A DNA stretch of 64,000 nt, taken from positions 1 to 64,000 of the IMG/VR virus record IMGVR_UViG_3300043432_000238, one strand, 5' to 3'. This DNA comes from a virus. Its lineage: Duplodnaviria; Caudoviricetes. Of the stretch, positions 1-61,455 are shown piece by piece (position 1 is the stretch's first letter; each line of letters opens with the position of its first letter). The notes below the pieces were generated by a model. The model ran no database searches. It saw only the letters and a program-made list of their open reading frames with translations, and had not been told where the DNA came from. Position numbers and translations under genes: made by a program.

Positions 1-5
1 CCTAG

Positions 6-704
6 CGTCCCCCTCTACGCGCTCGGGACGACCTCGTAGTCGTTGTCGGGGTCGCGGCACATCGTCCGTCCCCCTCTACGCGCTCGGGACGACCGTTGGC
101 GCCAAGATCATGAAAGTGCCGCCAGGGCGTCCCCCTCTACGCGCTCGGGACGACCGTCGTAGCCATGGGACTGCAGGAAGAGGACATCCGTCCCCCTCTA
201 CGCGCTCGGGACGACCCCTGCGGCGGCCTGCACGCCGAAGCTGCCGTGTCGTCCCCCTCTACGCGCTCGGGACGACCCTGCGCGCGGCCTCCGACAATCT
301 GGCGAGCAAGCGTCCCCCTCTACGCGCTCGGGACGACCTCTAGCCCTGCTCTGTGTCGACCACCAGCAGGACGTCCCCCTCTACGCGCTCGGGACGACCG
401 CCTCCTGCCGGAACCAGTCGGTCAGCGACCGCCGTCCCCCTCTACGCGCTCGGGACGACCTCGGGACATGTACTTTCAAACTGTCCTCCATAACGTCCCC
501 CTCTACGCGCTCGGGACGACCGCAGGCGAGTGGCACTGTGCGCAATCCTTCGGACGTCCCCCTCTACGCGCTCGGGACGACCTATATGAATCGCGAAGCA
601 ACGGCTCGCCCTTGTCGTCCCCCTCTACGCGCTCGGGACGACCTCAAACTGCGCGCTCTTCCTTGGGTGCAACATACGTCCCCCTCTACGCGCTCGGGAC
701 GACC
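6..704 (-). CRISPR. CRISPR array, 12 identical 28-nt repeats and 11 spacers of 33 nt (period 61); probably continues past the left edge
   Basis: CGTCCCCCTCTACGCGCTCGGGACGACC starts at 6, 67, 128, 189, 250, 311, 372, 433, 494, 555, 616, 677 with unique spacers. Minus-strand form GGTCGTCCCGAGCGCGTAGAGGGGGACG resembles type I-E repeats (GTCGTCCCC...). Orientation inferred from the leader, cas2 remnant and promoter to the right. Confidence 0.98.
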
Positions 705-750
705 TCTAGCCGCTAAGCGCCTGATCGCTCTCCACAATGTCAAAGATCAC

Positions 751-957
751 GGTCATCCGAAACACGTAGGGATTCCCCCTTCATAGCCCCGTTCCTCCGA
801 ATCCGGCCGAAGCCCGATCAGCGAAAGAACAAAGCTCCGATGCCCCTGGCTCCCTGGAATTGTGAGAGCACTTACCGACGGGCAGCCTCAGGGCCATCCT
901 ATGACCCAGAGGCGGGATTTAACCACGACCTGGACTGGCCGGGACCGCCTTCGCGAT
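751..957 (-). ncRNA. putative tracrRNA/scaffold RNA with anti-repeat at 751-772
   Basis: Plus strand 751-772 GGTCATCCGAAACACGTAGGGA vs repeat nt 1-22: 15 identities, 5 G>A changes (G-U pairs in RNA), 2 mismatches. Hairpins at 801-818 (C-UUCG-G loop) and 892-906. The 5' end is inferred from the promoter. Confidence 0.72.
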
Positions 958-963
958 AGGTGT

Positions 964-991
964 ATATTTGCTATTTCTTGAGCCTTGTCAA
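964..991 (-). promoter_or_regulatory. putative sigma70 promoter driving tracrRNA/leader/array
   Basis: TTGACA at 991-986, then about 17 nt to an AT-rich -10 (AAATAT/AATATA), resembling the alphaproteobacterial CTTGAC-N17-CTATAT pattern. Confidence 0.55.
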
Positions 992-1250
992 TAGAATTCC
1001 GTCGACTTCATACAAATCTCTGGAGACATCGCCGAGAGAACTGATGCCTATGTCACTGGACGCACTTATGTCCCGCGAGAGCATGACTATGCTTCCGTGG
1101 TTCAGTTCTTTGTGCCAGCGCTCAAGGACATCCCAGAGCCGATTTCTTGCGTCGCGGTTTAATTGCGCACTAACATAAATACTTGTTGAAGCCTCGAGTG
1201 ACGGGCATTATAAGGAATCCGGATCTTTTCCAGTCCGAGACGTCCGCGCA
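971..1250 (-). pseudogene. cas2: type I-E cas2 remnant (frameshifted, N-terminus lost)
   Basis: Frame 1207-971 reads CPSLEASTSIYVSAQLNRDARNRLWDVLERWHKELNHGSIVMLSRDISASSDIGISSLGDVSRDLYEVDGILLTRLKK*, matching the I-E Cas2 pattern LE...VYVS...R.R.W.V...W....GS.VM...LG...R.L.D.DG..L. An upstream frame gives DVSDWKRSGFL. In-frame TAA at 1210-1208; no usable ATG. Confidence 0.75.
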
Positions 1251-3308
1251 TCATGACGTCTCTCCTGCTTTGGCAGTGTGACGATCTTTCAGCAGTTTCT
1301 GCTCATTGCGCGCGGCATTGCGGTTTCGCCGCAGCATCTTGCCGCATGGCTCACCATCTTCCCGCAAGTTGATGCAGCGCAATATCTGGCGGCCATCCTT
1401 CATTTGCGGGTTGAGGCCGCCGCAGCTCGAGCACCGCTGGACGATCTGCTCCGTTGGCGCGATCTCCATATAAGCGGCTGGGCCGCGCAGATCCTCCGCC
1501 TTATATTTGATCGTCGTCTGAATGCGGGCCATCGCGACTCGCCGCATCATCTGCCGAGCCGCCTTCAATGAGCGTCTCTTGCCCTGGTGCTCCGGCCTTT
1601 GCCGCTCCTGCTCCTCGGCATCGGGCTTTTTCATCATCTTCGCCACCTGCATCCTCTGCACGGCGACCACATCGAATGTCCTGACGATTTTCGTCGTTAC
1701 CTGATGTAGCCAGTTTTCGCGCAGGTCCGCATCGCGTCCTTCCAATTCGGCCAGTTTGGCGGCGGCTTCGAAGAAGCCCCGTGATTGGGGAAGCCGCGGC
1801 CGTCCAGGCGTTTTGGAGACAATGCCGCGCGCCGCCTTCTGCTGGTGTCGGCGCTTGCCCGCCGCTGCGCGTTTCTGGATGCGTTTCTTGCGCGCTTCGA
1901 TGGCACGCGCTTGCTTGCGCGCGGTGATCTGGTGCAGAGCAAGCACATTGTCATCGATCGGCGGCATCGTCAGGTCCATCCCGTCGAGCTGGTCCTCACC
2001 GGTCTGGCCGCGATCATCGCACCAGGTGATCGGGATTTTGGCCGCAATCTTGATAGCGGCGGTTCGCCCGGTAAGTGGCAATGGCTCCGGTTGATCGACG
2101 GTCCACTGCACGGACAGATACCAGTCTTCGCCACGTCGCCAGATCCGCGCGCCTTCGCATTTTGGCACCGGCCCCTCGCCGCGCAATCCAGCGCGCACGA
2201 AAGGTGGCAGGCGGCATTCCATCCAGCCGACGCCGTTCGGCAACTTTATGCGTCCGTCGACCTCGCTATCCTTTCCTTTGCGCTGCTTGGCTTTGAATTC
2301 GAATTGCGTGTTGGCGAAATAAACCGAGCCTGCGGCATAGTGGTTCGGCTTGTATTTCGCGAACCCCGTCTTGCGGAATGGCAATCCCGCCGCTTGCTTG
2401 CGCAGTTCGCGGTACATATTCTGAATCGCGCCGTCGAGATCGGCGACTGTTTTCTGCGCCGCATGGGACGGCAGGTCGTCGATCCACCTTGTCAGGCCCA
2501 GTCTTTTCAAACGAGCCATGAGCTTTTGCATCTGATGGACGTCGATGAAAATCCTGGGTTGGTTTGCTTTGAGCAGATCATTATAGACGCCGGACGTCTT
2601 GGCGATCACGGCACAGTCACATGGACCCTCGTGCGCTTGGAGCCAGTCGATAAGCGCGTCCGCTTTATCCGTGATCTGCCTGTCCTTCAACCACTGCAGC
2701 GTATGCTGATGGCTGTGGTCGCAGGCAGCGCTGCGCAATGATTTGCGAAGCCGGCCCAATAGGCTGCGCATCTCGCGTTCCCTGAGCGGCACGCCGATGT
2801 CACGCCACGCCCACATCATCTTTGCCAGCCGTGCCGGATCGAGCGGCTTCGGCATCGCGGCGATCTTAGCCAAGGCGGCCTTGACTTCGTCATGCTCCGG
2901 CGTACCCTTCGGCAACTCATCAAGCCGGGTTTTCAGTTGCTCGCGTTCCTCTTCGCGACCGATGCCGGGTTCCTTGATCCATCCCGGCTCCTTCTTCCAC
3001 GCTCCGCCCTTGCCCTTCGTGCCCTTGCGCCATTTGCCTTCGCGATAGACCGTCTCCGCTGTCGCGAAATCGTTTTCGGCGATGCCGGTCCAGATCTTTC
3101 TCCAGCCGAGCCGCGACCGGCTGTTCTCACCGCTATAAGCGGCTTCCTGCAGCGTCAGCAGCAGATTCCAGAGCTGGATGCAGCGCCGCCGCCAGAGGTC
3201 CATGGTGCGCATTTGTGTCCGGCTCGGATAGAGGCGGCATTTGGTGCCGCGTTTCATCGAGCCAAGCGCATTCGTGGCGCGTTCGTCGCGCGTTTCGGCG
3301 ATTGCCAT
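1251..3308 (-). CDS. nuclease-dead TnpB/Cas12-like RNA-guided protein, 685 aa
   Basis: N-terminal KCRLYPSRTQ...LWNLLL (OrfB_IS605 HTH-like), LPSHAAQKTVADLDGAIQN...GFAKYK, and C-terminal Zn ribbon C626/C629/C645/C655. RuvC-I AAIK420, RuvC-II VAVQ551 and RuvC-III RN662RNAARN all lack the acidic catalytic residues. Confidence 0.9.
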   Translation of the reverse strand: MAIAETRDERATNALGSMKRGTKCRLYPSRTQMRTMDLWRRRCIQLWNLLLTLQEAAYSGENSRSRLGWRKIWTGIAENDFATAETVYREGKWRKGTKGKGGAWKKEPGWIKEPGIGREEEREQLKTRLDELPKGTPEHDEVKAALAKIAAMPKPLDPARLAKMMWAWRDIGVPLREREMRSLLGRLRKSLRSAACDHSHQHTLQWLKDRQITDKADALIDWLQAHEGPCDCAVIAKTSGVYNDLLKANQPRIFIDVHQMQKLMARLKRLGLTRWIDDLPSHAAQKTVADLDGAIQNMYRELRKQAAGLPFRKTGFAKYKPNHYAAGSVYFANTQFEFKAKQRKGKDSEVDGRIKLPNGVGWMECRLPPFVRAGLRGEGPVPKCEGARIWRRGEDWYLSVQWTVDQPEPLPLTGRTAAIKIAAKIPITWCDDRGQTGEDQLDGMDLTMPPIDDNVLALHQITARKQARAIEARKKRIQKRAAAGKRRHQQKAARGIVSKTPGRPRLPQSRGFFEAAAKLAELEGRDADLRENWLHQVTTKIVRTFDVVAVQRMQVAKMMKKPDAEEQERQRPEHQGKRRSLKAARQMMRRVAMARIQTTIKYKAEDLRGPAAYMEIAPTEQIVQRCSSCGGLNPQMKDGRQILRCINLREDGEPCGKMLRRNRNAARNEQKLLKDRHTAKAGETS

Positions 3309-3366
3309 GGTTGGGGCCTCGTCTAGGCTTGTTGAGCTATTGCGGTATGCAGGTTGGGCATGCCTT

Positions 3367-3606
3367 TTAAATCCAGGTCTCTACGATCACGGGGTCATCA
3401 TCGGGAAACCTGCCGATGCAGAAATGCCCGTGTGGAATATCGGCGCGGGCCTGGTCGAGATCGTCGTAGACGCCGCCGATGTCTGCCGAAGTTATTGGTG
3501 TCGTGCTGGACTGCATGACGAATTGCCTGCGAACCACGACATGGTCGGGGAAATCCCGCGGATGATCGTAGACCACCCAAAGCGTCAGCAGCCGGTTCGA
3601 CGTCAT
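3367..3606 (-). CDS. phage hypothetical protein (WVVYDHPRDFPDHVVVRRQ)
   Basis: Start overlaps the upstream stop; typical small phage protein. Confidence 0.7.
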   Translation of the reverse strand: MTSNRLLTLWVVYDHPRDFPDHVVVRRQFVMQSSTTPITSADIGGVYDDLDQARADIPHGHFCIGRFPDDDPVIVETWI

Positions 3607-3890
3607 TGCGTGCCCCGTCGAATCTTGCAGGCGACAGTCAGGGACCGGGGATCGTCCGCACGGCCCGCCGTTGTCGCCATCGCAGTCAGTCCGCAAAGAG
3701 TGCACTTGATCAGCCACGCTCCGCAGCGTGGTGCCGGGTGGCGGAGATCGATTGTGCAGCACGGCGTTTTGCCACCCGTCGCATCGACATCGATGCCGGC
3801 TGGATAGGCCGGGTTTGGTTGCCGCTGTGGCTCGCGGAAGAAGTCGACCCATTCCGCGACGAGGGGACCGCTCGGTTTCGGGGCGGTCAT
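3603..3890 (-). CDS. Cys-rich hypothetical protein
   Basis: Coupled ORF, CxxC motif (CTLC). Confidence 0.65.
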   Translation of the reverse strand: MTAPKPSGPLVAEWVDFFREPQRQPNPAYPAGIDVDATGGKTPCCTIDLRHPAPRCGAWLIKCTLCGLTAMATTAGRADDPRSLTVACKIRRGTQ

Positions 3891-4417
3891 CGCGCGCCCC
3901 TCATCACGTCGTAGATCTCTTGAACCGAGTGTTCCGCCGCGAAGACGCCCTCTTTCGTGCGCCATCCCGTGCCGGTAAGCTGCGGAGGCCAAAGAGTGAA
4001 GCCGCTGCCGCTGCTGTAACGGATCAGCGCGACCAGCCCGCGCCTTTCAATCCAGGCGCGCAGATTCTGGTCCTGGTGAGCGTCAGGATATTTCGGGTCG
4101 CACCAGATCTGCACGATCGGCACGCGGTGCGTCTCGCCCGTCTCGTTATCTTGCGCCGTGATGAATTCCGGCGACGGATCGAGCACATAGTGCGAGCGGT
4201 CAGGCCGGCTGAGATCGCCGGCGTCGTCATTTATCAGCCATCCGCACGACCAGACCCGGCATGGAAACGGGCGCGATGGATAGATCGCACAGCCCTTGGC
4301 GTGGCGCTGGTGCTGGCAGCGCTGATTGCTCGGCTTATTGAACATCGGCGCTGGCATCAGCCGGCAGCATAGTTGGCAGTCGCCGCAGCGGCGTTGGATG
4401 GCAATGGAGTCAGTCAT
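3887..4417 (-). CDS. YkgJ-like CxxCxxCC metal-binding protein
   Basis: RRCGDCQLCC...CxxxxxxxGCAIYPSRPFPCRVWSC motif. Confidence 0.7.
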   Translation of the reverse strand: MTDSIAIQRRCGDCQLCCRLMPAPMFNKPSNQRCQHQRHAKGCAIYPSRPFPCRVWSCGWLINDDAGDLSRPDRSHYVLDPSPEFITAQDNETGETHRVPIVQIWCDPKYPDAHQDQNLRAWIERRGLVALIRYSSGSGFTLWPPQLTGTGWRTKEGVFAAEHSVQEIYDVMRGAR

Positions 4418-5075
4418 TGGGCGCCCCGAAGCAGCGATCAAGCAGCGAGGTGAAGCGCATCACCTGCGCGCCGAGTTCCTTCAATGCCGCCGGCCCTTCT
4501 GCGCGTGCCGGTTCCTCCAGCAGGGGCAGGCCGGATTCAACCGACTGCTCGACCTCTTCGCGCGTCGCTGGTCGCCCCTCGCGGAAGAACGCAATCTCCA
4601 GCGGGTCGCCGACGCGGATCAGCACGCCGCCGGGCGCGCGGAACACCGAATAGTGCCGCGTAAGCCAGAGCAGGCTGACGCCGGGATTGCGCTCGATCAT
4701 GAGGCCGGCCGGCTTCTTCGTCGGCATATCCTCCATGCCGCGCATATTGCGCTTTGCCATGGGCCGCGTCAGGAACGGACAGGCATTGACGGCGAACTCG
4801 GCGCAACTGCGATGGCTCGGCGGCTCCGAAGAGACGCGGTTGACGCCGCACATCGGGCCGATGACGAAGGCGAGAAGAGATCCCAGCGGCTGGCCGCAGA
4901 GCCAGCAGCGCTTGTGCCGGATGGCGCGACGGAATTTCGCCGGATCGGCGGCCTGGAACACCGGTTTGCCGTCGAGCCAGTCGACGAACCAGGGCACCGG
5001 AAAGCCGCGCTCATCGATCGGAAGAGCCTTGAAGCGGTCCGGCAATGGTGGCAGGTCGGTGCGAAGCTCAGCCAT
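4410..5075 (-). CDS. conserved phage hypothetical protein
   Basis: LPIDERGFPVPWFV...CWLCG...FVIGPMC...EPPSH...CPFL; coupled with its neighbours. Confidence 0.7.
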   Translation of the reverse strand: MAELRTDLPPLPDRFKALPIDERGFPVPWFVDWLDGKPVFQAADPAKFRRAIRHKRCWLCGQPLGSLLAFVIGPMCGVNRVSSEPPSHRSCAEFAVNACPFLTRPMAKRNMRGMEDMPTKKPAGLMIERNPGVSLLWLTRHYSVFRAPGGVLIRVGDPLEIAFFREGRPATREEVEQSVESGLPLLEEPARAEGPAALKELGAQVMRFTSLLDRCFGAPND

Positions 5076-5083
5076 TTCGAACC

Positions 5084-5706
5084 TCAATAATATCTGATCG
5101 CCATCAAGATCCGCGCCGCCCAGGCAATCGCCCGGTCATATTGCACCTCGCCGCCATTCTCATGCGGGATCAGCGTCCAGCCCGCGTTGCGTCCACGCAC
5201 GAGCCGCCGCAGAAGCACCGGCCCATCGGCGACGGCGACGAGGCAGTCCGTGCCATGGGCGTTGTCGAGATCCTCGGGCCGGAAGCGGTTGCCGATCAGC
5301 ACGGTGCCGGGCTCGAAACCGCCAACGGCCGCGTCGATCCGCACGGCGACCGGATCATCGCCTGCGACCTCCAGGTTGACTTTGGCTCCAGCCTCCTGCT
5401 CGCGGGAGATGATCCGTCCGTGCTCGTCGGCGCGGCCGAGCAGCGGGATCTCACGGACGCCCCGGGCGCCGACCAGGTCGATGGGCTCGACCGTCAGCGC
5501 GTGGGCGATCTTCTGCAACCACTCCATCGAGACGGTCATATTGTCGGTCTCAAGCCGCTGGATGGTCTGCGGGGTGGTGTGTATCTTGTGCGCGAGCTGC
5601 TTCAGCGTCATGCCGCGCAGCTTGCGGAACTCCCGGATTCTGGTCTGCATGCCGATGGTCTTCGGCCGGATCGCCGAGGCGGAGTACGGTGTGTCGTGGA
5701 TCGTCA
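5084..5706 (-). CDS. XRE-family HTH transcriptional regulator with S24-like C-terminus (start uncertain)
   Basis: RIREFRKLRGMTLKQLAHKIHTTPQTIQRLET helix-turn-helix. Confidence 0.8.
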
Positions 5707-5924
5707 TCTGTCTTGAACCTGACATATTTCCTGACCATGAGTGCCGCTGGGATGCCAGGAGCCGATAGGGCACGAAACTCCAGACACCCCAGCGGTCGCT
5801 ACCCCGCTACTGCTTGTCGCGTGCACCCGTATCCGGTTCCACGCTGTCGACCACCCACGGTGCTGGGCCGGTGGCAGTCGAATTCCCAGGCCAGCCCTTA
5901 TCCGTTTGGCGAACGAGATAAGGC

Positions 5925-7335: not shown

Positions 7336-8169
7336 TCAGGCTCCAGGACGCAGCGGAACGACGACGGGTTTCGCCGCCTCCCGCTCATGCGGCATGATGA
7401 CGAGACGCTTGCAGTGCTGGTCGATGAAACTGCCGGCGGGAGGATCGAAGATTTTCAGCTTCTTGATGGCGGTGTGCCAGAGGTGGACGCCGACTGTCCA
7501 TTGCGTGAAGCGTTTGGTGATATCGACCGCCGGATCGAAGACGTCCATGTGCTGCATCCATGAGTTCGGATAGAACACGTCGACCGACTCCGCCCTGATG
7601 TGCAGATTGTGCTTCTCGGCAAAATGCGTCACTGCAAGCGGTCCTATGATCGCCCATTCGAGGCAGTCGACCGGGCGTGATTTGCCTCTCAGCCAGCGCC
7701 GATATTGCTGCCACTTCCTGGCGACCGGCCACCACGGTGCGATCACCGGGCGTTTGGCGGCGAATGCGAGCGTTTCGGTGATGATGGGACAATCGGCTGG
7801 CAGTTTGAGAACGCCACTCCCGATCGATGTCTCGGTCTCATAGCCGAAGATGTAATCGGCCTCGGCGAGCGGCTTGATGAACACCATGTCGGTGTCGACC
7901 CAGCAGCCGAGCTGCTTCTGCAGCAGATGATAGCGGAAGAAATCCGAGCCCAGCGCAAAGCTGCCCTCGCGTTTGTTCTTGATGACCAGCCGCTCCGGCA
8001 TGACCTCGCGGCCGTCGCGCATGTCGACGCCTGTCGGCGCGTTCGGCACACCGAGATAGGTGTAGAGGGCCACCTTGTGGCCGGTATCGAGCATCGAGGT
8101 CAGGCAGAGCCGCTCGATATAGCTCAGCTCGCCGCCGACCCATAAGGCGCATAGATTTTGCGTTTTCAT
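7336..8169 (-). CDS. DxD glycosyltransferase (GT32/capsule-synthesis-like)
   Basis: LWVGGELSYIERLCLTSM...SDFFRY.LL...G.WVDTD motif. Confidence 0.85.
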   Translation of the reverse strand: MKTQNLCALWVGGELSYIERLCLTSMLDTGHKVALYTYLGVPNAPTGVDMRDGREVMPERLVIKNKREGSFALGSDFFRYHLLQKQLGCWVDTDMVFIKPLAEADYIFGYETETSIGSGVLKLPADCPIITETLAFAAKRPVIAPWWPVARKWQQYRRWLRGKSRPVDCLEWAIIGPLAVTHFAEKHNLHIRAESVDVFYPNSWMQHMDVFDPAVDITKRFTQWTVGVHLWHTAIKKLKIFDPPAGSFIDQHCKRLVIMPHEREAAKPVVVPLRPGA

Positions 8170-8172
8170 GGA

Positions 8173-9130
8173 TTACTCCCCGTGCACCTTGGCGTAGGGT
8201 TGCGGCAGATGGCCGATCATCGATGCGGCGCGGCCGATGCCTTTGGCGATCTTCTTGCCGCCGGCGAGCGCGCGGCGTTTGAATTCGAAGGGACCGGCCG
8301 CAATGAACAGCGGGCTCACCGCTATCTCCAACGCTCCGATCAAGATGTTCAGCGGCACAGTATGTGCCTTCGCCAGCATGGCGCGGCCGGTTCCCCTTTC
8401 GATTGCGGCGCGCCGCAGATCCGATGCCGCATTCCAGTAGGCACGGTATACCTGCGCGCGGTAGGTCAGCCGCCCGCGGTGAAATTGCTCGTGCGTGATG
8501 GCGCGCTGGGTCTGGCGGATTTCGAAGCCGAGCTTGTGCGCTGTCGAGAAGAATTCGATGTCCTCGCCGCCCATCAGCCCGAGGCTCTCGTCGAAGCGCA
8601 GCCCGGCACGCACGAGCGTCATGCTGAAGCGGACATTGGCCGTCGTGGCTGTCTTCGCCCGCGCGCCCTCGGGCCGCGGCTGTTTGGGCCGGTGCGCTGC
8701 CCAGAACGGAAGCGGGTCGGGATACACAAACTCGCGGCGGCCATCGAGCACGGGCACCTGCCGGTATTCCGGCGCCATCAGCTCGGCGATCCAATAGGGA
8801 TCGGCGACCTCGTCATCGTCGATGAAGGCGATCCAGTCGCAATTGTGCCCGAGCGCGGCGTCGATCACCCGGTTGCGGGCACAAGCGATGCCGCGGCGAT
8901 GTTCATGGAGATATTGGATCGGGAGAGGCGAGCGGTTGCGCAGCGTATTGACGATGCCGCGATTGTTGGGGCGGGGCTCGTTATCGACGACGACGACCCG
9001 GACATCGAGGTCGTTAGGGGTGGCCTGCAGCATCAAGCTTTCGAGGCAGGCGGTCAGCATTTCGGGGCGGCGAAACGTACACACGCCGATACAAATTCGC
9101 GTCCCGTGATGTGAAGCCGGTATGTCCAAC
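8173..9130 (-). CDS. GT2 glycosyltransferase, ExoM-like
   Basis: VCTFRRPEML...VVVVDN...GIACARN...FIDDDE...GGED motifs. Confidence 0.88.
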
Positions 9131-9169
9131 ATTAGCCGTCCCCCATATTTTGTAGGAGTACAGAGAACC

Positions 9170-9183
9170 GTAGAAAATTCCAC
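9170..9183. promoter_or_regulatory. putative repressor operator (GTAGAAAATTCCAC)
   Basis: One mismatch to the GTGGAANNTTCCAC palindromes next to cI. Confidence 0.5.
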
Positions 9184-9834: not shown

Positions 9835-10905
9835 TCAAGCTTTCTGCGCCTTGCGCGCCTCGCGCCGATCGCGGCTTGCGCGGGCGGATCTTGCCTTGTC
9901 CGCAAAGCGGGCATACCGGCTGACCATCTGCACGCTCATGCCCAATTCATCGGCGATGGCGCCGTCTTCCGTGCCGGCTTCGCGGCGGTCGCAGACTGCC
10001 GTCGCGCGCAATCCGTGGATCGTCATCTTGACGCCCTCGATCGGCTTGGCTTCATCACTGTCGCGCCATCGGTTCCAGCGGCTGTTCAGGCCATCGCCCG
10101 TATATGGATTTCCGGTCGGACTTTTGAGAAAGAAGTCAAGCTCACCGACGCCCCATGATCTGATTTCCGCAATCTGCGGTTTCGTCAGTGGTACAAAATG
10201 CGTCTTGCCACGTAACTTGCTGATCGATAGCCTGACCCCGTCAGACGTGAGGTTTGCGCCGCGAAAGGCGACGAGATCTTCGCGGCGCTGCCCGCACGCC
10301 CGGCCGAGAAATGCCATGCGCCGCAGATCCTCTGGCGCATGCTGCAGCACGAACAAGTAAGCATCTTCCGGCCACGGTTCCGCGCCCCCCTCATCGCTCT
10401 TCAGCTTCTTGATGCCCATCGCAGGATTGTCGGTGCGATAGCCGCGCGGGATCGACCATTCGAGCAGTGTCCGCAATACGGCGATCATGTGGTTCGCGGC
10501 GACCGGCGTTGCTGCCATTCGGTCGCGCATCTGGTAGATGTCCGCACGTGTCAAATCGGCGACGAGCTGATTGGCAACGCCGACCGTCAGCCGGTCGAGA
10601 TAGGTGCTGTAGTCCTTTTGCGTACGCGGTTTCAGCCAGGTGAATTCCTGCGACCCGCGATAGGCAACGATCAGCTCGCCAAAGGTGTAGGTCGGTCCCG
10701 TTGGCTCAAGAGGATCAGCGCCTTGAGCCTCTTTCAGCCGTTGCCAGAATAGCGGATCGTTGGTGTCCGATCCGAGGGCGATACGCTTACCGGCGCTCTT
10801 CGTTGCCCGGTTGGCTTGGTAATAGAAATACCTGCGCCCGTTTGGCTTGGTCACGCACTGCACGCCTTTTGGCAGGTGCAGGCTTACGCTTTTGGGTCGG
10901 GGCAT
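9835..10905 (-). CDS. int: tyrosine integrase
   Basis: R (GQRRED), HGLRAT and catalytic Y (SRYAR); N-terminal arm-binding domain. Confidence 0.95.
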   Translation of the reverse strand: MPRPKSVSLHLPKGVQCVTKPNGRRYFYYQANRATKSAGKRIALGSDTNDPLFWQRLKEAQGADPLEPTGPTYTFGELIVAYRGSQEFTWLKPRTQKDYSTYLDRLTVGVANQLVADLTRADIYQMRDRMAATPVAANHMIAVLRTLLEWSIPRGYRTDNPAMGIKKLKSDEGGAEPWPEDAYLFVLQHAPEDLRRMAFLGRACGQRREDLVAFRGANLTSDGVRLSISKLRGKTHFVPLTKPQIAEIRSWGVGELDFFLKSPTGNPYTGDGLNSRWNRWRDSDEAKPIEGVKMTIHGLRATAVCDRREAGTEDGAIADELGMSVQMVSRYARFADKARSARASRDRREARKAQKA

Positions 10906-46444: not shown

Positions 46445-46826
46445 GGACGCGGTTCGCGTCTATCGCTGGCACATCGAGAAGCGCTCCGGGCTCCGCATTA
46501 AGGCGGGACTGCCGACGGACGGCTGGAAGCGCAGTCTCGACGACTACCTCCAATCGGCGAGCGCGCTCGCCGGCTGCATGCGCCGGCAGGGCTTCTTTCG
46601 CGGCGGTGCCATTCCCGTCGATCCGGACGGCGAGCTCCTGGGCGGCGCTCATCGTTTGGCCTGCGCACTGGCGCTCGGCATTGCCGAAGTGCCGGTGACC
46701 CGCGATCAGCGCCGGGTGTGGGCGCCGGCTTGGGGTGAAGCGTGGTTCCGGGACAATGAGATGGCCGTCGAGGATATCGTCAGGCTCAGGCGTGACTGGC
46801 TGGCTTTGTATTCGGGCCAGCATTGA
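46278..46826 (+). CDS. ParB/sulfiredoxin-like domain protein (start uncertain)
   Basis: IPVDPDGELLGGAHRLACALALG. Confidence 0.65.
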   Translation: MSEASPSSRSMSSISSSTLPGLICSTLPTGSLVTPRRFDLAVKWRLFRHLLHGGDEDAVRVYRWHIEKRSGLRIKAGLPTDGWKRSLDDYLQSASALAGCMRRQGFFRGGAIPVDPDGELLGGAHRLACALALGIAEVPVTRDQRRVWAPAWGEAWFRDNEMAVEDIVRLRRDWLALYSGQH

Positions 46827-48448
46827 CATCAGCCACACTCGCCGACCTTCAGGCCATTGAGCGCCTGATCGAAGGACTGCCGCCGGAAAGCCGCAAGGCG
46901 CTCGAAAGCATCCCCGCGATCAGGGAACGGCTCGGCAAGTGGCGGCCAAACCCGGGGCCGCAAGAGCAGGCTTATTATTCGAAGGCCGATTGCCTGCTCT
47001 ATGGCGGCCAGCCCGGCGGCGGCAAGACCTCGCTGATTTTGGGCCTGGCCTTCAACGAGCATAAGCGCACGCTGATCATGCGCCGCGAATATGGCGGCCT
47101 CGACCGCATCATCGAGGATGCGCTGAAGATCCATGGCAGCCGCGATGGCTTCAACGGATCGCCGCCGCCCCGGCTGAAAATCGACGGTGACCGCGTGATT
47201 TATTTCCGCGCGGCGCACCGCGTCGGCGATGAGCAGGGCACCATGGGTCAGGGCCGCGATCTGCTCGCCATCGACGAGGCGACGCAATTCGCCGAGAGCC
47301 AGGTCCGCTTCATGATGGGCTGGGTTCGCTCGGAAGATCCGCGCCAGCGCTGCCGCACGGTGCTCGCCACCAATCCGCCGCTCCAAGCCGAGGGTTTGTG
47401 GGTGGTCAAGATGTTCGCGCCCTGGATCGACGAGCGCTACCCAAGGCCGGCGCTGCCCGGCGAATTGCGCTGGGTGGTGTCGGACGCGGAAGGCAACGAC
47501 GAATGGGTCGAGGGAGCGGATGACACGCGCGAGGTGGCCGGCAAGGTCGTCCGGCCGACCTCGCGGACCTATATTCCGGCGTCCACGAAGGACAACCCCT
47601 ATTACGTCGACAGCGACTATGAGCGCCAGCTCGACGCCATGCCGGAGCCGTTCCGCTCATTGCTCATGGGCGGCTTCAAGACGCAGTTCCGCGACGACGA
47701 CAACCAGCTCATCCCCACCGTCTGGGTGAAGGCGGCGCAGGCCAGGTGGAAGGCCGACGGCTGGAAAGAGTTCGATATGACGGCCATGGCGCTCGATCCT
47801 GCGGGCGGCGGTCCCGACAAGGGCGTGCTCGCCTGGCGTCATGGAGGCTGGTACGCGCCGCTCGTCGTCATCCGCGCGGATCAGGATGGCGATAGCGACG
47901 ATCCGAACGCATCCGCAGAACGAGCGATGCTTCGTGCTTCGAAAATGGCCGCCAGCGTCATCATGCATCGCCGCGCGAGCGCTCCGGTAATCGTCGATAT
48001 GGGCGGCGGCTATGGCGGCGATGTCTCGGCGCGGCTGAAAGAAAACGGCATCGCCTATCAAAGCTTCAACGGCGCCGAGAAATCGACCTTCATCGGCAAG
48101 GAGGGCGTCCGCTATGTCAATCGCCGCGCTCTCGCCTGGTGGCAGTTTCGTGACGAGCTCAATCCGGATCGCGAGGGCGGCTCGCTGATCGCCTTGCCGA
48201 ACGATCCTGAGCTCCTCGCCGACCTGACCGCGCCGCGGTTCGAGATGACGCGGGCCGGCGTCAAGATCGAGGACAAGGACGAGATCAAGAAACGGCTGGG
48301 CCGCTCGCCGGACAAGGGCGACGCTGCGGTGATGTGTCTCGCACCCGGTAACAAGGCCGTGAAACGCGTCGAGGCAATGCTTTCGCGCGGCGGCAAGCCG
48401 CTTCAGGCCAAGCTCGGCTATGCCAGCGCAAAAAGGGGAAAACGATAG
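46823..48448 (+). CDS. terL: terminase large subunit
   Basis: LYGGQPGGGKT, AIDEATQF, ATNPP, ALDPAGGGPD, SPDKGDA. Confidence 0.93.
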   Translation: MTSATLADLQAIERLIEGLPPESRKALESIPAIRERLGKWRPNPGPQEQAYYSKADCLLYGGQPGGGKTSLILGLAFNEHKRTLIMRREYGGLDRIIEDALKIHGSRDGFNGSPPPRLKIDGDRVIYFRAAHRVGDEQGTMGQGRDLLAIDEATQFAESQVRFMMGWVRSEDPRQRCRTVLATNPPLQAEGLWVVKMFAPWIDERYPRPALPGELRWVVSDAEGNDEWVEGADDTREVAGKVVRPTSRTYIPASTKDNPYYVDSDYERQLDAMPEPFRSLLMGGFKTQFRDDDNQLIPTVWVKAAQARWKADGWKEFDMTAMALDPAGGGPDKGVLAWRHGGWYAPLVVIRADQDGDSDDPNASAERAMLRASKMAASVIMHRRASAPVIVDMGGGYGGDVSARLKENGIAYQSFNGAEKSTFIGKEGVRYVNRRALAWWQFRDELNPDREGGSLIALPNDPELLADLTAPRFEMTRAGVKIEDKDEIKKRLGRSPDKGDAAVMCLAPGNKAVKRVEAMLSRGGKPLQAKLGYASAKRGKR

Positions 48449-48918: not shown

Positions 48919-48927
48919 CCCTTGGCC

Positions 48928-50655
48928 ATGGACAGCCGCGCCAAGGAAGTCGTCCGCATGGGCGACAAGCTGTTCAGCGACAAATACCAGTTGAACAGCT
49001 TGCACCAGGAACTTGCGCTCAACTTCTATCCCGAGCGCGCCGACTTCACCAACAAGCGCAATATCGGCGATGAATATGCCGATCACCTGTTCTCGTCCTT
49101 TCCGGTGATGGCGAGGCGCGAATTCGGCAATATGCTCGACGAGTTCCTGTTTCCCGACAAGTTCTTCTCGATCCATGTCGACGACGAGGAACTCGATGAG
49201 GGCGACGCCGAGCGGGCGTTTCTGGAGCGGCTGACCAACATCATGTACCGGGCGATGACGGACCCGGCGGCCAATCTGATCATCGCCCGCGGCCAGACCA
49301 ACCATGATTTTGCGACCTTCGGCGATGGCGTCATCAAATTCGGGCTGAACGTCGCACGCGATGCACTGCTCTATACCAACTACCACCTGCGCGACTGCGC
49401 CTGGACGGACAATGCCGAGGGCCGCACCGACCTTCTGCATCGCGACTGGAACCCCAGCGCACGCCAGCTTTCCTCGCATTTCAAGGACAAGGTCTCCGGC
49501 GACGTCAAGCGCGCGCTGGAGAAAGATCCCGACAAGAGGTTCCCCTGCCGCCATGTGGTGCTGCCCTCGCGCATCTACCGCTATCAGTCCAAGGGCGGCA
49601 AGGATTTCGATTTCGTCTCGCTCTATGTCGAATGCGAGAGCGAAACCGTGCTCGAAGAGGTCGGCCTCAACTATTTCTGCTATGTCGTACCGCACTGGCA
49701 GCGCGTCTCGGGCTCGCAATATTCCTCCTCGATGGCGACCAGCATCCTGCTCCCCGATGGGCGCACCATGCAGGTGGTGATGCGCACCATCCGCGAGGCC
49801 GGCGAGAAATATGTCGACCCGCCGATGATCGCGGTCGGCGAGGCCATTCGCGGCGATCTCGGCCTCTATGCCGGCGGCGTCACCAATGTCGATGCCGAAT
49901 ATGACGAGCGCCTCGGCGAGGTGCTGCGGCCCATCACCCGCGACCGCGGCGGCTTTCCGATCGGCAAGGAGGTCGCCGGCGCCCTCAGGGACGACATCAC
50001 CAAGGGCTGGTTCCTCGACAAGATCAAGCTGCCGGAGACCAGCTACCAGATGACGGCGACGCAGGTGCGCCGCATCATCCAGGAGCATATCCGCGCCGCC
50101 GGCCCGATCTCCAAGCCGATCCAGGCGTCCTACAACTATCCGCTCTGCGACGGCACCTTCCAGCTCCTGTCGCTGGAGAAGGTCTTCCCCTTCGAGCAGA
50201 TGCCGCAAAGCTTGCAGGGCCGCGATCTGAAATTCAAATTCCGCTCGCCGCTCGACGAGCTGGTGGAGCAGAACGAGGCCGACACCTATGTCGACGTCCG
50301 CGACCGCATCTATCTGCCCGCGATCCAGCTCGACCCGAGCCTGAAGGAGATCGTCGATCTGGAGGCATCGACGCGCGATGCCATGCGCTCGGCCGGCTGG
50401 CAGGCGAAATGGTTCAAGCCGAAAGAGGCCGTCGCCGGCGCGCGCCAGCAACAGGCGCAGCAGCAGCAGCTGTCCGAGTTGGCGGGCCAGGTCAGCACCG
50501 CAGGCCAAGTGGCGCAGGAAGCCGGCAAGGGCGTCGATGCCTTGATGACCGCAGGCCAGCCGAAGGGCGGGGCAGGCGGCTCGCCGCAAGCGCTGATGCA
50601 GCAGATGCAGCAGCAACAGGCGATGCAGCGCCTGCTCGGTCAGCAGGGGGCCTAA
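48928..50655 (+). CDS. portal (head-tail connector), T7/BPP-1-like
   Basis: Size, position and motifs (FGDG, VDPP, MTATQV..I). Confidence 0.88.
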   Translation: MDSRAKEVVRMGDKLFSDKYQLNSLHQELALNFYPERADFTNKRNIGDEYADHLFSSFPVMARREFGNMLDEFLFPDKFFSIHVDDEELDEGDAERAFLERLTNIMYRAMTDPAANLIIARGQTNHDFATFGDGVIKFGLNVARDALLYTNYHLRDCAWTDNAEGRTDLLHRDWNPSARQLSSHFKDKVSGDVKRALEKDPDKRFPCRHVVLPSRIYRYQSKGGKDFDFVSLYVECESETVLEEVGLNYFCYVVPHWQRVSGSQYSSSMATSILLPDGRTMQVVMRTIREAGEKYVDPPMIAVGEAIRGDLGLYAGGVTNVDAEYDERLGEVLRPITRDRGGFPIGKEVAGALRDDITKGWFLDKIKLPETSYQMTATQVRRIIQEHIRAAGPISKPIQASYNYPLCDGTFQLLSLEKVFPFEQMPQSLQGRDLKFKFRSPLDELVEQNEADTYVDVRDRIYLPAIQLDPSLKEIVDLEASTRDAMRSAGWQAKWFKPKEAVAGARQQQAQQQQLSELAGQVSTAGQVAQEAGKGVDALMTAGQPKGGAGGSPQALMQQMQQQQAMQRLLGQQGA

Positions 50656-59022: not shown

Positions 59023-61455
59023 GTGGCAAAGCTTCCGACCCAGGAATCGCTCGGCGGTCTGCCGGCGATCCAGAACCGTCCGATTGCGACCTACGACACG
59101 ACGGCGATCGGCCGCGGCGCGGCCAATCTCGGTCAGGGCATCGAGCGGGTGGGTGCCGCGCTCGACACCATCGACGCCGCCCAGAATCAGGCGCAGGCAT
59201 TCGAGACCGAGCGGCGTTTCCAGGAATTCAAATGGGACCAGCAGAAGGGTCTCGACACCCAGATGCGGCAGGTCGAACCGGGACAGGCGGACGGCTTTGC
59301 CGATCAATGGGCGCAGGGTTACAAGCAAAACGCCAAAGATTTCTTTGCGACCGTCCCGGACCGGCTGAAACCGCAGTTTGACGAACGGCTGTTCGGCGTC
59401 GAGCGCGATTTCTACAACAGCGCCGCGACCTTCGCGCGCACCGAGCAGAAGCGCTATTCGCTCGAGCAGCTCAACGATACGTCCAGCCAGTATTATTCCC
59501 GCGCATCGGCGGGCGAGCCACTCGATAATATCAGGAATGATTACAAGACTGCCATCAAGCTGAATCCCTATCTGACGCCGATCGAAAAGGACGAGGAAGC
59601 AAGAAACGGGTTCCTCGGACTTGAAAAGGCGGCGATCGAGGGCCGGCTCGCGCGCGGCGAGGATCCGGTTGCGCTGCTGAAAGACGTGAAGATACAGCCG
59701 CGCAAATCGCCGATCGATACCGACCTCAATCCGGAAGTCCGGGCAAAGCCTTTCGATGGTTCGGCAGAAATCCCAGCGGCACCCAAGCCCTTGCCGTTTT
59801 CCGCCAGCGTCAACGACGCCATTACCGCCGCGGCCAACAAGCACGGCGTTGATCCCGGATTGCTCGCAACCTTTGCCAAGATCGAGAGCGGCGGTAAGCC
59901 GGGAGCGCAGACCGGCTCATACAAGGGATTGTTTCAGCTTTCGAACACCGAATTCCGCAAACATGGCGGCGAAGGGAATATTTTCGATCCTGCCGCTAAT
60001 GCCGATGCGGCCGCGGCGAAACTGAAAACTGAAGCTGATCAGTTCCAGGAAAAATATGGTCGGCCGCCATCGCCGATCGATCTCTACATGATCCACCAGC
60101 AGGGCGAGGCCGGCTACGATGCGCACATGGCCATGCCGGATGCGCCGGCCTGGCAGAATATGGCATCGACAGGCGAAGGCCGCGAGAAAGGCACGCGCTG
60201 GGCGAAGCAGGCGATCTGGGGAAACATCCCCGACGATGTCAAGGCGCAGTTTCCGGGTGGCGTCGACAGTGTCACCAGCGCCGATTTCGTCAAGATCTGG
60301 CAGAACAAGCTCGATCATTTCGGCGCGCCTTCCGCGGCAGCAACGCCGAAACAGGAATATGATCTCGGTCCTTACCCGCATCTCGACGCCAAAACCCGCT
60401 CTGCGCTGATCTATCAGATCACCCTGGCCGGCCATGAGACCGCGCTCGCCGATATGCGCGACGCCGAGGCTTCACTTCGCCGCGTTGGTAAAGCTGCGGT
60501 CGACGATCAGGGCCGCACCGCTCTCGATCGTGCCAAGACCATCCTGACGCGGAACCAATACACCAAGGCGAAATTGGGTTGGGATGCGGCTATTGCCGAA
60601 CATGAGGCTGTGTCACCGATCGCCGATATGACGGCGACCGAAGCTGCCGATCATCTCGATAGCCTGACGCCGAATCTGGGGATGGACGATGAACGCTATG
60701 CCATAGCCGACCGGGTGCAGAAGAAGGCGAACGATGAATGGACGCGGATCGCGGGCCTGCGTGATACCGACCCGGCGCTTTCGGTCGACAAGTCGCCAGA
60801 GGTGCTGGAGGCCAAGGACAAGCTCAAGCACCTGACACAGATGTGGCCGGCCCAGCAGAACGCCATCCTGATCGACGCCAGGAAAGCGGCGCAGACCCGC
60901 GTCGGCATCCCGGACTTCCAACAGCGTGTCCTGACCGATGCCGAGGCCGCCGATCTGCTGCGGTTGCCCCGCCACCCCGACGATCCGCAGATCGTCCAGG
61001 ACGCCATGAAAGACGCCGTCGAGAGGGCGCGCGAGCGTTACGGTCACTATGCCGGCGACGCGCTCGACAGCGCCATCTCCGTGCATCTGAAGCCCAAAGA
61101 GAACAGGGACGCCGCGCGCTTTTTCTCCGACACCTTGCGGGCGGAGAACAAGCCGAAGCCGGCGGCAGGCGACAATTCATGGGGACAGTATTTCACCGGC
61201 TGGTTCGGCGGTGCATCGCCTCCCGAGATGCCAGGGAAGAATCCGTTGCGGACAGGCGCGGCCCAGGCCCCGACGAAAGCGAACCCGCTGCCGGCGCAGC
61301 CATCCGCCAGCTCATCCGCGCCTCTCCCCAATCAGGCGCAGATCGACTGGGCGGCGAGCGACCCGCAGAACCGGCAGGCCGCGTTTGACGACAAGTTCGG
61401 CCCCGGCGCATTCGCCAAAGCGATGGCGGGCCGGCAGGCAGGAGGCGCGCGCTGA
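59023..61455 (+). CDS. internal virion protein with lytic transglycosylase domain
   Basis: HGVDPGLLATFAKIESGG...KGLFQL...IFDPAANA (about 59800-60120). Confidence 0.85.
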   Translation: MAKLPTQESLGGLPAIQNRPIATYDTTAIGRGAANLGQGIERVGAALDTIDAAQNQAQAFETERRFQEFKWDQQKGLDTQMRQVEPGQADGFADQWAQGYKQNAKDFFATVPDRLKPQFDERLFGVERDFYNSAATFARTEQKRYSLEQLNDTSSQYYSRASAGEPLDNIRNDYKTAIKLNPYLTPIEKDEEARNGFLGLEKAAIEGRLARGEDPVALLKDVKIQPRKSPIDTDLNPEVRAKPFDGSAEIPAAPKPLPFSASVNDAITAAANKHGVDPGLLATFAKIESGGKPGAQTGSYKGLFQLSNTEFRKHGGEGNIFDPAANADAAAAKLKTEADQFQEKYGRPPSPIDLYMIHQQGEAGYDAHMAMPDAPAWQNMASTGEGREKGTRWAKQAIWGNIPDDVKAQFPGGVDSVTSADFVKIWQNKLDHFGAPSAAATPKQEYDLGPYPHLDAKTRSALIYQITLAGHETALADMRDAEASLRRVGKAAVDDQGRTALDRAKTILTRNQYTKAKLGWDAAIAEHEAVSPIADMTATEAADHLDSLTPNLGMDDERYAIADRVQKKANDEWTRIAGLRDTDPALSVDKSPEVLEAKDKLKHLTQMWPAQQNAILIDARKAAQTRVGIPDFQQRVLTDAEAADLLRLPRHPDDPQIVQDAMKDAVERARERYGHYAGDALDSAISVHLKPKENRDAARFFSDTLRAENKPKPAAGDNSWGQYFTGWFGGASPPEMPGKNPLRTGAAQAPTKANPLPAQPSASSSAPLPNQAQIDWAASDPQNRQAAFDDKFGPGAFAKAMAGRQAGGAR

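Follow-up and report, generated by a model that had tools for sequence, protein, structure and literature searches.

The left edge of a 64,000-nucleotide (nt) stretch of viral DNA, hereafter the window (bases 1-64000 of the 79,332-bp IMG/VR record IMGVR_UViG_3300043432_000238), carries a minus-strand locus in which the gene for a TnpB-related effector is followed by remnants of cas1 and cas2, a candidate trans-activating CRISPR RNA (tracrRNA) and a long CRISPR array. The record is that of a temperate tailed phage. We argue, from sequence comparison, that the locus is a phage-borne, TnpB-derived, type V-like CRISPR-Cas system with a naturally nuclease-dead effector which would block chosen DNA by binding to it, and we give this reading a probability of roughly 0.6. 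The ancestral order of the locus appears to have been effector, cas1e, cas2e, tracrRNA with leader, and an array of type I-E format. Naturally dead type V effectors are already known, as is a phage effector on an I-E-like array (Cas12r). New here is a naturally dead, type V-like and apparently tracr-dependent system which is built on I-E adaptation and array parts and resides on temperate phages; in the literature we found no published description of phages in which a dead effector is accompanied by a Cas1e-Cas2e module.

The effector and its family

The effector gene (1251..3308, minus strand), which is single-copy in the record, encodes a protein of 685 amino acids (aa) whose TnpB/Cas12 fold is supported by open reading frame (ORF), profile and structure-model evidence. 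It passes the NCBIfam guided_TnpB profile NF040570 with 107.4 bits against a cut-off of 100. A word-indexed search of metagenomes gave 92 relatives, and the resulting family alignment (n=93) was compared with 28 ordinary TnpBs by profile-profile alignment (hhalign), which returned a probability of 100 and an E-value of 2e-69 over 390 columns. This alignment placed K420 on the RuvC-I Asp, Q551 on the RuvC-II Glu and N662 on the RuvC-III Asp, the RuvC-I motif reading GVKIAA in the effector as against GIDxG in ordinary TnpB, and the placement of Q551 and N662 was confirmed by pairwise alignment to ISDra2 TnpB. The effector thus lacks the RuvC Asp-Glu-Asp catalytic triad and has K/Q/N in its place, while the zinc ribbon (TNB domain, CCCC) is intact at C626, C629, C645 and C655. 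An earlier sequence-only reading of this DNA, made without database searches, had described just such a protein with the same three substitutions and an intact ribbon, and it is borne out by the profile alignment for all three positions and by the ISDra2 comparison for Q551 and N662. An AlphaFold2 model built from the family alignment (predicted local distance difference test score, pLDDT, 92; predicted template modelling score, pTM, 0.86) matched TnpB, Cas12m2, Cas12f and Cas12p about equally in Foldseek, at E 1e-10 to 1e-13 (Cas12m2 at 8e-13). The hidden Markov model and structure searches proposed in that reading as a check (NF040570, hhalign, Foldseek) therefore agree in placing the protein within the TnpB/Cas12 superfamily, the sequence and profile matches covering its WED-RuvC-TNB core. 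The ratio of nonsynonymous to synonymous substitution rates (dN/dS) between the effector and its 85-86% identical relatives is 0.10-0.11, which indicates purifying selection. Judged by these alignments and the model, the effector is a RuvC-inactive TnpB/Cas12-fold protein. Relative to TnpB it carries a lineage-specific insertion of ~190 aa at residues ~62-253, including a DUF2695 domain (183-236), and shorter members of the family are without it. The DUF2695 stretch (window ~2600-2760), situated in the N-terminal lobe of the long members, has a CxH...CxC motif and is also matched by free-standing proteins of ~100 aa.

An exhaustive phmmer search retrieved 33 clusters at E<1e-30, followed by a gap down to ordinary TnpBs at ~1e-9; by this gap in the sequence scores the effector family is a compact, separate clade. 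The PADLOC profile Cas12_x2, which is filed under V-F, matched the effector with E 1.4e-192 and 639 bits over positions 10-544 of its 549, the runner-up Cas12u4 reaching 64.8 bits. When the family profile was compared with solved structures, ISDra2-type TnpB ranked at the top (E 1e-31 to 1e-42), RdCas12n (9J09, E 1e-20) and LaTranC came second, and Cas12p (E 1e-7) and Cas12f (E ~1e-6, over the TNB region only) ranked lower; no Cas12m chain was among the sequence or profile matches of the family to solved proteins. The view that the locus fits no recognised subtype was accordingly too strong, given the Cas12_x2 match (E 1e-192) and the dead type V effectors and Cas12r in the literature. As far as seen, the family is phage-restricted. 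A pattern scan of 185,579 species genomes returned no relative of the effector family or of this phage's portal protein, and tblastn returned no effector homologue in GenBank phages or PLSDB plasmids. An ordinary IS605 TnpB was considered as well and was ruled out by the lack of TnpA, the single copy, the phage synteny and the presence of an array instead of a single guide.

The substitutions recur across the family in a pattern that bears on whether the protein could still be a nuclease, with a rearranged active site or another substrate, the invariant RuvC-I Lys taking part in a new catalytic arrangement. Lys occupies the RuvC-I position in 89 of the 93 members and an Asp or Glu stands at RuvC-II +3 in 80 of them, so the replacements are not random, and rearranged but active RuvC sites have been reported in TnpB clades (PMC10691335). 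At the RuvC-II position itself Gln is found in 69/93 members and Glu or Asp in 19/93. However, the protein of this phage has no acidic residue at any of the three metal-binding positions and has Gln at RuvC-II and at +3 alike, and the RuvC-III position varies between N, R, Q, T and H across the family, with a lone Asp in P0076, which is a poor fit to a catalytic role. We consider retained nuclease activity very unlikely, and prefer an effector that binds without cutting. The zinc-ribbon Cys residues are kept in ~88/93 relatives.

Array, adaptation remnants and candidate tracrRNA

The leader-proximal part of the array (6..704, minus strand) consists of 12 identical 28-nt repeats with 33-nt spacers, at a period of 61. 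Bases 79207-79332 at the far end of the record are identical to window 6-131, and from there the array runs on beyond window base 1, from record base 79206 down to ~77720; the identical record ends therefore join into one array across the contig ends. In all it has 30 perfect and ~5 degenerate repeats with ~35 spacers, a larger array than the at least 12 repeats that had been counted from the window. The degenerate repeats lie at the end farthest from the effector, as would be expected if the leader were next to the effector and the array were transcribed on the minus strand. Just before the 126-nt end overlap, the two ends differ in five bases (CCTAG in window 1-5, GGAGA in record 79202-79206). 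The assembly therefore joins array variants, a hint that spacers vary within the phage population or that the array was joined wrongly at an internal point. Frames of 180-200 aa running through the array, for example 165-716 on the plus strand, were rejected as artefacts of periodic sequence and are not genes.

The same arrangement was found in the relatives. A period-61 array lies downstream of the effector on the same strand in 8/9 IMG/VR loci, the ninth ending at the gene, and among the metagenome loci an array is present in every one that reaches at least ~1 kb past the effector gene. The question of whether homologues also sit beside arrays, raised as a check in the sequence-only reading, is thus answered in the affirmative, and a single TnpB-derived effector is conserved beside a CRISPR array, as in type V. 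The make-up of the array is that of type I-E, with 28+33-nt units and with Cas1e/Cas2e in the relatives, and the repeat of one related locus (L013) resembles canonical I-E repeats; the derivation of the array from I-E, which had been proposed from the window, holds. No complete I-E operon accounts for it. Cas7e, Cas6e and Cas3 were searched for in the record (TIGR01869, TIGR01907, TIGR01587) and none was found, while the positive controls worked. That the array might be part of a host I-E locus or an assembly chimera was rejected, since conserved synteny in >20 loci and the lack of Cascade and Cas3 speak against it.

The gap of 547 nt between effector and array had been taken for a promoter and an RNA; the RNA stands, but remnants of cas1 and cas2 in the same gap had been overlooked, and the promoter is discussed below. 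A cas1e stub of ~19 codons (1198..1254, minus strand) has its start overlapping the effector stop (ATGA) and gave a tblastn match to Cas1 residues 1-52. It is followed by a 5'-truncated cas2e remnant (971..1198, minus strand) with the C-terminal 75 codons and the stop, whose frame is open stop-to-stop over 971-1207 without a start codon, and the I-E Cas2 profile PF09707 matched at 989-1198 on the minus strand (profile positions 22-86, E 4.9e-10). No Cas1 domain was found anywhere in the record. Thus the statement that the window holds no cas1, Cascade or tnpA is right for Cascade and TnpA, while for cas1 it has to be amended by the stub and the cas2e remnant at 971-1254. The closest relatives, with effectors 85-86% identical, have intact 100-aa Cas2e genes and Cas1e too. 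Alignment to the two closest is colinear up to window 1198 and then shows a clean gap of 887 bp (in L045 the alignment breaks at window 1198 = L045 8111/8999), so that the deletion takes out nearly all of cas1 and the first ~25 codons of cas2. The cas2 remnant is still conserved against the intact genes of relatives (dN/dS ~0.1), which fits a recent deletion. Many relatives carry Cas1e (291-302 bits against an NCBIfam cut-off of 216) and Cas2e between effector and array, and in others cas1/cas2 are partial or absent; adaptation genes, which are optional in type V, are thus only remnants in this phage and intact in relatives. A second, independent deletion is seen in locus L019, which lacks ~855 bp that are present in the 99% identical L007. 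The adaptation genes have been lost several times in the family. The two independent deletions of ~0.86-0.89 kb, in L019 and in this phage, both begin just past the effector stop and remove cas1, which suggests a recurrent route of adaptation-module loss.

Apart from cas1 and cas2 no gene consistently adjoins the effector across the loci. In the record we found no Y1 transposase TnpA, with a positive control that worked, and no TniQ, in a search made without a positive control, and no tnsB/tnsC/tniQ-type gene was among the annotated ORFs, that is the larger ones and those around the locus. This bears on the proposal that the dead effector acts as a recruiter which finds the target while a separate enzyme (a host nuclease, the Cas3 of a host I-E system or a nearby phage protein) acts on it, in the manner of Cas12k with its transposase or dCas12f with a sigma factor. 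In favour of a recruiter, there are repeated instances of a dead type V effector being coupled to a partner (PMC10691335, PMC13472631), the ~190-aa insertion with its DUF2695 might serve such a coupling, and two small genes of unknown role just upstream of the effector (3367-3852 and 3887-4441) have homologues in some relatives. Against this, only cas1 and cas2 are constant neighbours, genes for a nuclease, a sigma factor, Tn7 or Mu were not observed, the phage has no Cas3, and the short family members do without the insertion. We hold a recruiter to be unlikely, and the effector is better read as acting by its own binding.

The remaining part of the gap holds a structured RNA of ~205 nt (751..957, minus strand), our candidate tracrRNA, which shows covariation and ends in a 22-nt anti-repeat (772-751, minus strand). 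From this anti-repeat to the first repeat downstream is 46 nt, and 20/22 of its positions pair with the repeat if G-U is counted. Between RNA and array is a leader (705..750, minus strand) with TCTTTGA...CTTAGC..CTAGAG motifs conserved in a 14-locus alignment; judged by this conservation, it is probably the leader for Cas1-Cas2 integration and/or the tracr 3' end. Every locus has an anti-repeat, at a distance of 39-66 nt from the first repeat downstream. It is complementary to repeat positions 1-22 apart from two mismatches that recur across loci, and it changes along with the repeat even between this phage and its 86% relative. Pairing of an anti-repeat with its own repeat averages 18.5/22 as against 16.2 for cross pairs, and the own partner is best in 9/13 loci. 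The 200 nt upstream of the anti-repeat are also conserved in the 14-locus alignment, and RNAalifold on a 13-locus alignment predicted several helices for the candidate tracrRNA. With the first hairpin added, the 33 pairs are 91% paired, against 32-48% when the partners are slid by 1-3 columns, compensatory changes occur at 20 pairs against 4-12 in the slid controls, and 0/500 shuffles reach the observed values. The single-sequence fold has a minimum free energy z-score of -3.0, with a duplex between the anti-repeat and repeat 1 forming in cis. No Rfam family matched in window 1-1400. Thus the anti-repeat RNA beside the array, predicted from the window, is upheld by the 20/22 pairing and the covariation. 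A TTGACA box (986..991, minus strand) inside the cas2 3' end, with an AT-rich stretch after it, is proposed as the -35 element of a promoter for tracrRNA and array, and a TTGAC(A/G) box is found at the same aligned place in 9/14 of the compared loci.

The same pairing might be put to another use, in which the phage tracrRNA and dead effector would capture CRISPR RNAs (crRNAs) of a host I-E system as a counter-defence decoy, disarming the immunity of the host or borrowing its spacers. In favour of a decoy, the repeats descend from those of type I-E, and what the anti-repeat engages is the hairpin-forming portion of an I-E repeat, its 5' 22 nt; a precedent has been proposed for a phage-encoded Cas9 with an inactivated RuvC (PMC11656645). 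But the phages keep their own long, fast-changing arrays and Cas1-Cas2, and the anti-repeat follows the phage's own repeat even between close relatives, and we regard a decoy as very unlikely, the least probable of the alternatives considered here.

Spacer content was compared between close relatives. In L005 and L009 the effector, cas1 and cas2 are 99-100% identical and yet the arrays, of 28 and 13 spacers, have 0 spacers in common; L019 and L007, 99% identical in the effector region, share only two, and these lie behind 15 and 10 lineage-specific spacers on the leader side. Spacer turnover in the relatives' arrays is fast. This has a bearing on whether the guides might instead steer the dead effector to host or phage promoters, controlling lysogeny or host physiology in the manner of TldR or CRISPR interference (CRISPRi). 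Such a regulator would find the module well placed in the lysogeny region beside the repressor, dead TnpB relatives (TldR) are repressors (bioRxiv 10.1101/2023.11.30.569447), and non-cutting would make the targeting of the host harmless. However, the phage genome contains, outside the array, no match to any spacer, and long arrays that differ wholly between near-identical phages, together with a dedicated adaptation module, are a signature of immunity and not of fixed regulation; a regulatory role is therefore, in our estimate, distinctly unlikely, and immunity by binding remains the preferred reading. In L006 the array at 3172-4537 has three repeat variants arranged in blocks and one shortened unit (spacing 47), a block pattern which suggests recombination between arrays.

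Proposed mechanism and related systems

In the proposed mechanism, Cas1-Cas2 of type I-E would insert 33-bp spacers at the leader end, and the promoter in the cas2 3' end would drive transcription of the ~205-nt tracrRNA and probably of the array too. The 3' anti-repeat of the tracrRNA would pair with repeat nucleotides 1-22, the duplex probably being trimmed by host RNase III, and the effector would bind the resulting tracr:crRNA pair, in which the guide would follow the repeat on its 3' side, an arrangement shared with TnpB and Cas12. The complex would then find DNA flanked by a protospacer-adjacent motif (PAM), probably A-rich and AAG-like, such a PAM being expected because I-E adaptation selects protospacers of this kind, and would form an R-loop without cutting, so blocking transcription or replication of the target. 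The module would probably serve the prophage against rival mobile elements. In this phage, where cas1 and cas2 were destroyed by the recent 887-bp deletion, the array of ~35 spacers should be frozen, unless a host I-E Cas1-Cas2 acts in trans.

Some observations weigh against this reading. None of 213 unique family spacers had a match outside the arrays in this phage, the loci or five sibling phage genomes; the 33 spacers of the phage's own array had no match in GenBank phages and chance-level matches only in PLSDB plasmids, and exact 26-mers of three leader-proximal spacers had none in IMG/VR. Against the five sibling phage records the own-array spacers gave only chance or repeat matches of 17-20 nt. 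Since no protospacer was found, the targets and the binding-only action are inferred. The proposed promoter at 991-986 was not called by a generic sigma-70 consensus scan, and as the motif is conserved and yet escapes the scan we infer the promoter as well. To these is added the acidic residue at RuvC-II +3, kept by most relatives and replaced by Gln in this phage; as far as sequence can tell, residual or altered chemistry may persist somewhere in the family.

A wider proposal, to which we give somewhat less than even odds, is that the family is a distinct phage-restricted type V subtype in which the nuclease was lost early, I-E adaptation and array were captured, the tracrRNA arose from the old leader, and the outcome was adaptive immunity without cleavage against rival elements, a natural CRISPRi with memory for temperate phages, from which cas1/cas2 are repeatedly shed once the arrays are stocked. 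According to a survey of TnpB/Cas12, CRISPR capture took place independently ~50 times, and several V-U branches are inactivated (PMC10691335); the phage family may be equal to one of these branches.

Among characterised CRISPR effectors, Cas12n (V-N, formerly V-U4/C2c9; RdCas12n 9J09 and AcCas12n) is the closest in logic, with its tracrRNA, monomer and AAG/AAC PAM. It is tracr-dependent with an AAG or AAC PAM, and 9J09 is RdCas12n (PMC12216341). Like the phage effector it is small, TnpB-like and of the monomer type, and it uses a crRNA with a tracrRNA, as is predicted for the phage system; its A-rich AAG/AAC PAM would fit I-E adaptation. Of the solved CRISPR effectors, RdCas12n 9J09 scores best with the family profile (E 1e-20). 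However, Cas12n cuts DNA through an active D/E/D site, where the phage effector has K/Q/N; its tracrRNA overlaps the effector ORF, whereas that of the phage family lies after cas2; it resides in actinobacterial chromosomes and not on phages; and its sequence similarity to the phage effector is weak, at 65 bits as against 639 for Cas12_x2, ISDra2 TnpB scoring above Cas12n.

Silencing without DNA cutting is known for Cas12m and Cas12c (PMC12669027), and V-M is among the subtypes that have arrays but no other cas genes (PMC10691335). The phage effector resembles Cas12m (V-M) and Cas12c (V-C), by analogy, in its probable PAM-dependent binding that would block transcription or replication, its carriage on mobile elements and its general fold, while a sequence relationship to Cas12m is undetectable. 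Cas12m uses a crRNA only, which it processes itself. Unlike Cas12m, the phage family has a predicted tracrRNA, to which a complete set of Cas1e and Cas2e is added in relatives.

Cas12r of the Thermus Lalka phages is an active nuclease, its D238A mutant losing interference, and its array has 29-bp repeats, spacers mostly of 31-33 nt and an ARG PAM (bioRxiv 10.64898/2026.04.20.719267). Compared by description and not by sequence, it shares with our system a TnpB-derived effector, an integrase-encoding phage, an I-E-format array, an I-E-compatible PAM (ARG, where that of our system is only probable) and a proposed role in conflicts between mobile elements, and it differs in being active, in having no tracrRNA, in phages without cas1/cas2 and in its restriction to thermophiles.

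TldR and dCas12f-sigmaE are, like the phage effector, naturally dead proteins of the TnpB lineage; they act by RNA-guided DNA binding, which is probably the mode of the phage effector too. Both regulate host operons, the dCas12f proteins are C-terminally truncated, and one dCas12f cluster is near CRISPR arrays (PMC13472631). The phage effector, on the other hand, has a complete C-terminus and zinc ribbon, and while TldR and most dCas12f use single fixed guides without adaptation genes, the phage family draws its guides from a dynamic array. With this array and an adaptation module in place of a fixed omegaRNA, it is not a TldR, and with a family profile E-value of ~1e-6 to Cas12f against 1e-31 to ISDra2 TnpB it is not Cas12f proper. 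Cas12k of the CRISPR-associated transposons (CAST, V-K) has a very short array, whereas that of this phage is long. With type I-E the locus shares the 28-29-nt repeat, the 32-33-nt spacer, the period of 61, the leader beside cas2 and, in relatives, Cas1e/Cas2e; it differs in that there is no Cascade, Cas6e or Cas3, and its repeats have no tight hairpin and pair with the tracrRNA instead.

Most of the known non-cutting CRISPR effectors either come without adaptation genes or serve transposons or host regulation. In the present family a dead-effector clade has its own I-E Cas1-Cas2 in many members, with arrays that differ wholly between near-identical phages, which suggests that for a temperate phage binding by itself repays the keeping of an adaptive memory. 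The family shows class 1 and class 2 modules recombined on a virus, provides in its several natural losses of cas1/cas2 a means of asking how an array is maintained once adaptation has gone, and would be a source of small DNA binders, dead by nature and guided by a tracrRNA, that could be used in CRISPRi or fused to base editors. If it is indeed a distinct subtype, an effector of ~540-690 aa with a probable AAG-type PAM would make a ready-made compact DNA binder. The system of this phage is a recently decayed copy, and its individual weight is lower accordingly.

The phage and its neighbouring genes

The record is 99% complete by CheckV, with a G+C content of 62% and ~84 genes. PHROG matches identified a tyrosine integrase (9835-10905, minus strand), a CI-type helix-turn-helix (HTH) repressor (5084-5773, minus strand), a large terminase (46823-48448) and a portal or head-tail connector (48922-50655), and elsewhere in the record RecT, a RecE-like exonuclease, a primase-polymerase and tail proteins. 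The integrase, CI-like repressor, RecET, terminase, portal and tail genes together establish that the element is a temperate tailed phage, as had been supposed from the window. Direct terminal repeats are present in two related records, whose completeness is put at 100% and 74%, and the nearest portals of cultured phages (Pelagibacter and other podophages) are only ~25-28% identical to that of this phage. The CRISPR locus, at the left edge of the window, belongs to the lysogeny region and shares its strand with repressor and integrase, and this placement, with integrase, glycosyltransferase and HTH repressor as neighbours, recurs in the relatives' loci.

Between the repressor region and the integrase is a pair of glycosyltransferase-like genes (window 7336-9183, minus strand), kept in related phages, which may be lysogenic-conversion genes. 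At the other end of the window a single ORF of 3,947 aa begins at 61455, runs through 64000 and continues to record base 73298 (L004 1-9298). Within its downstream 3,078 aa (L004 62-9298) lie two domains, a ParB domain of ddrB-like type and an ADP-ribosyltransferase domain of ART-PolyVal type. They suggest that it is one of the 'polyvalent proteins' of phages and is probably delivered against the defences of the host.

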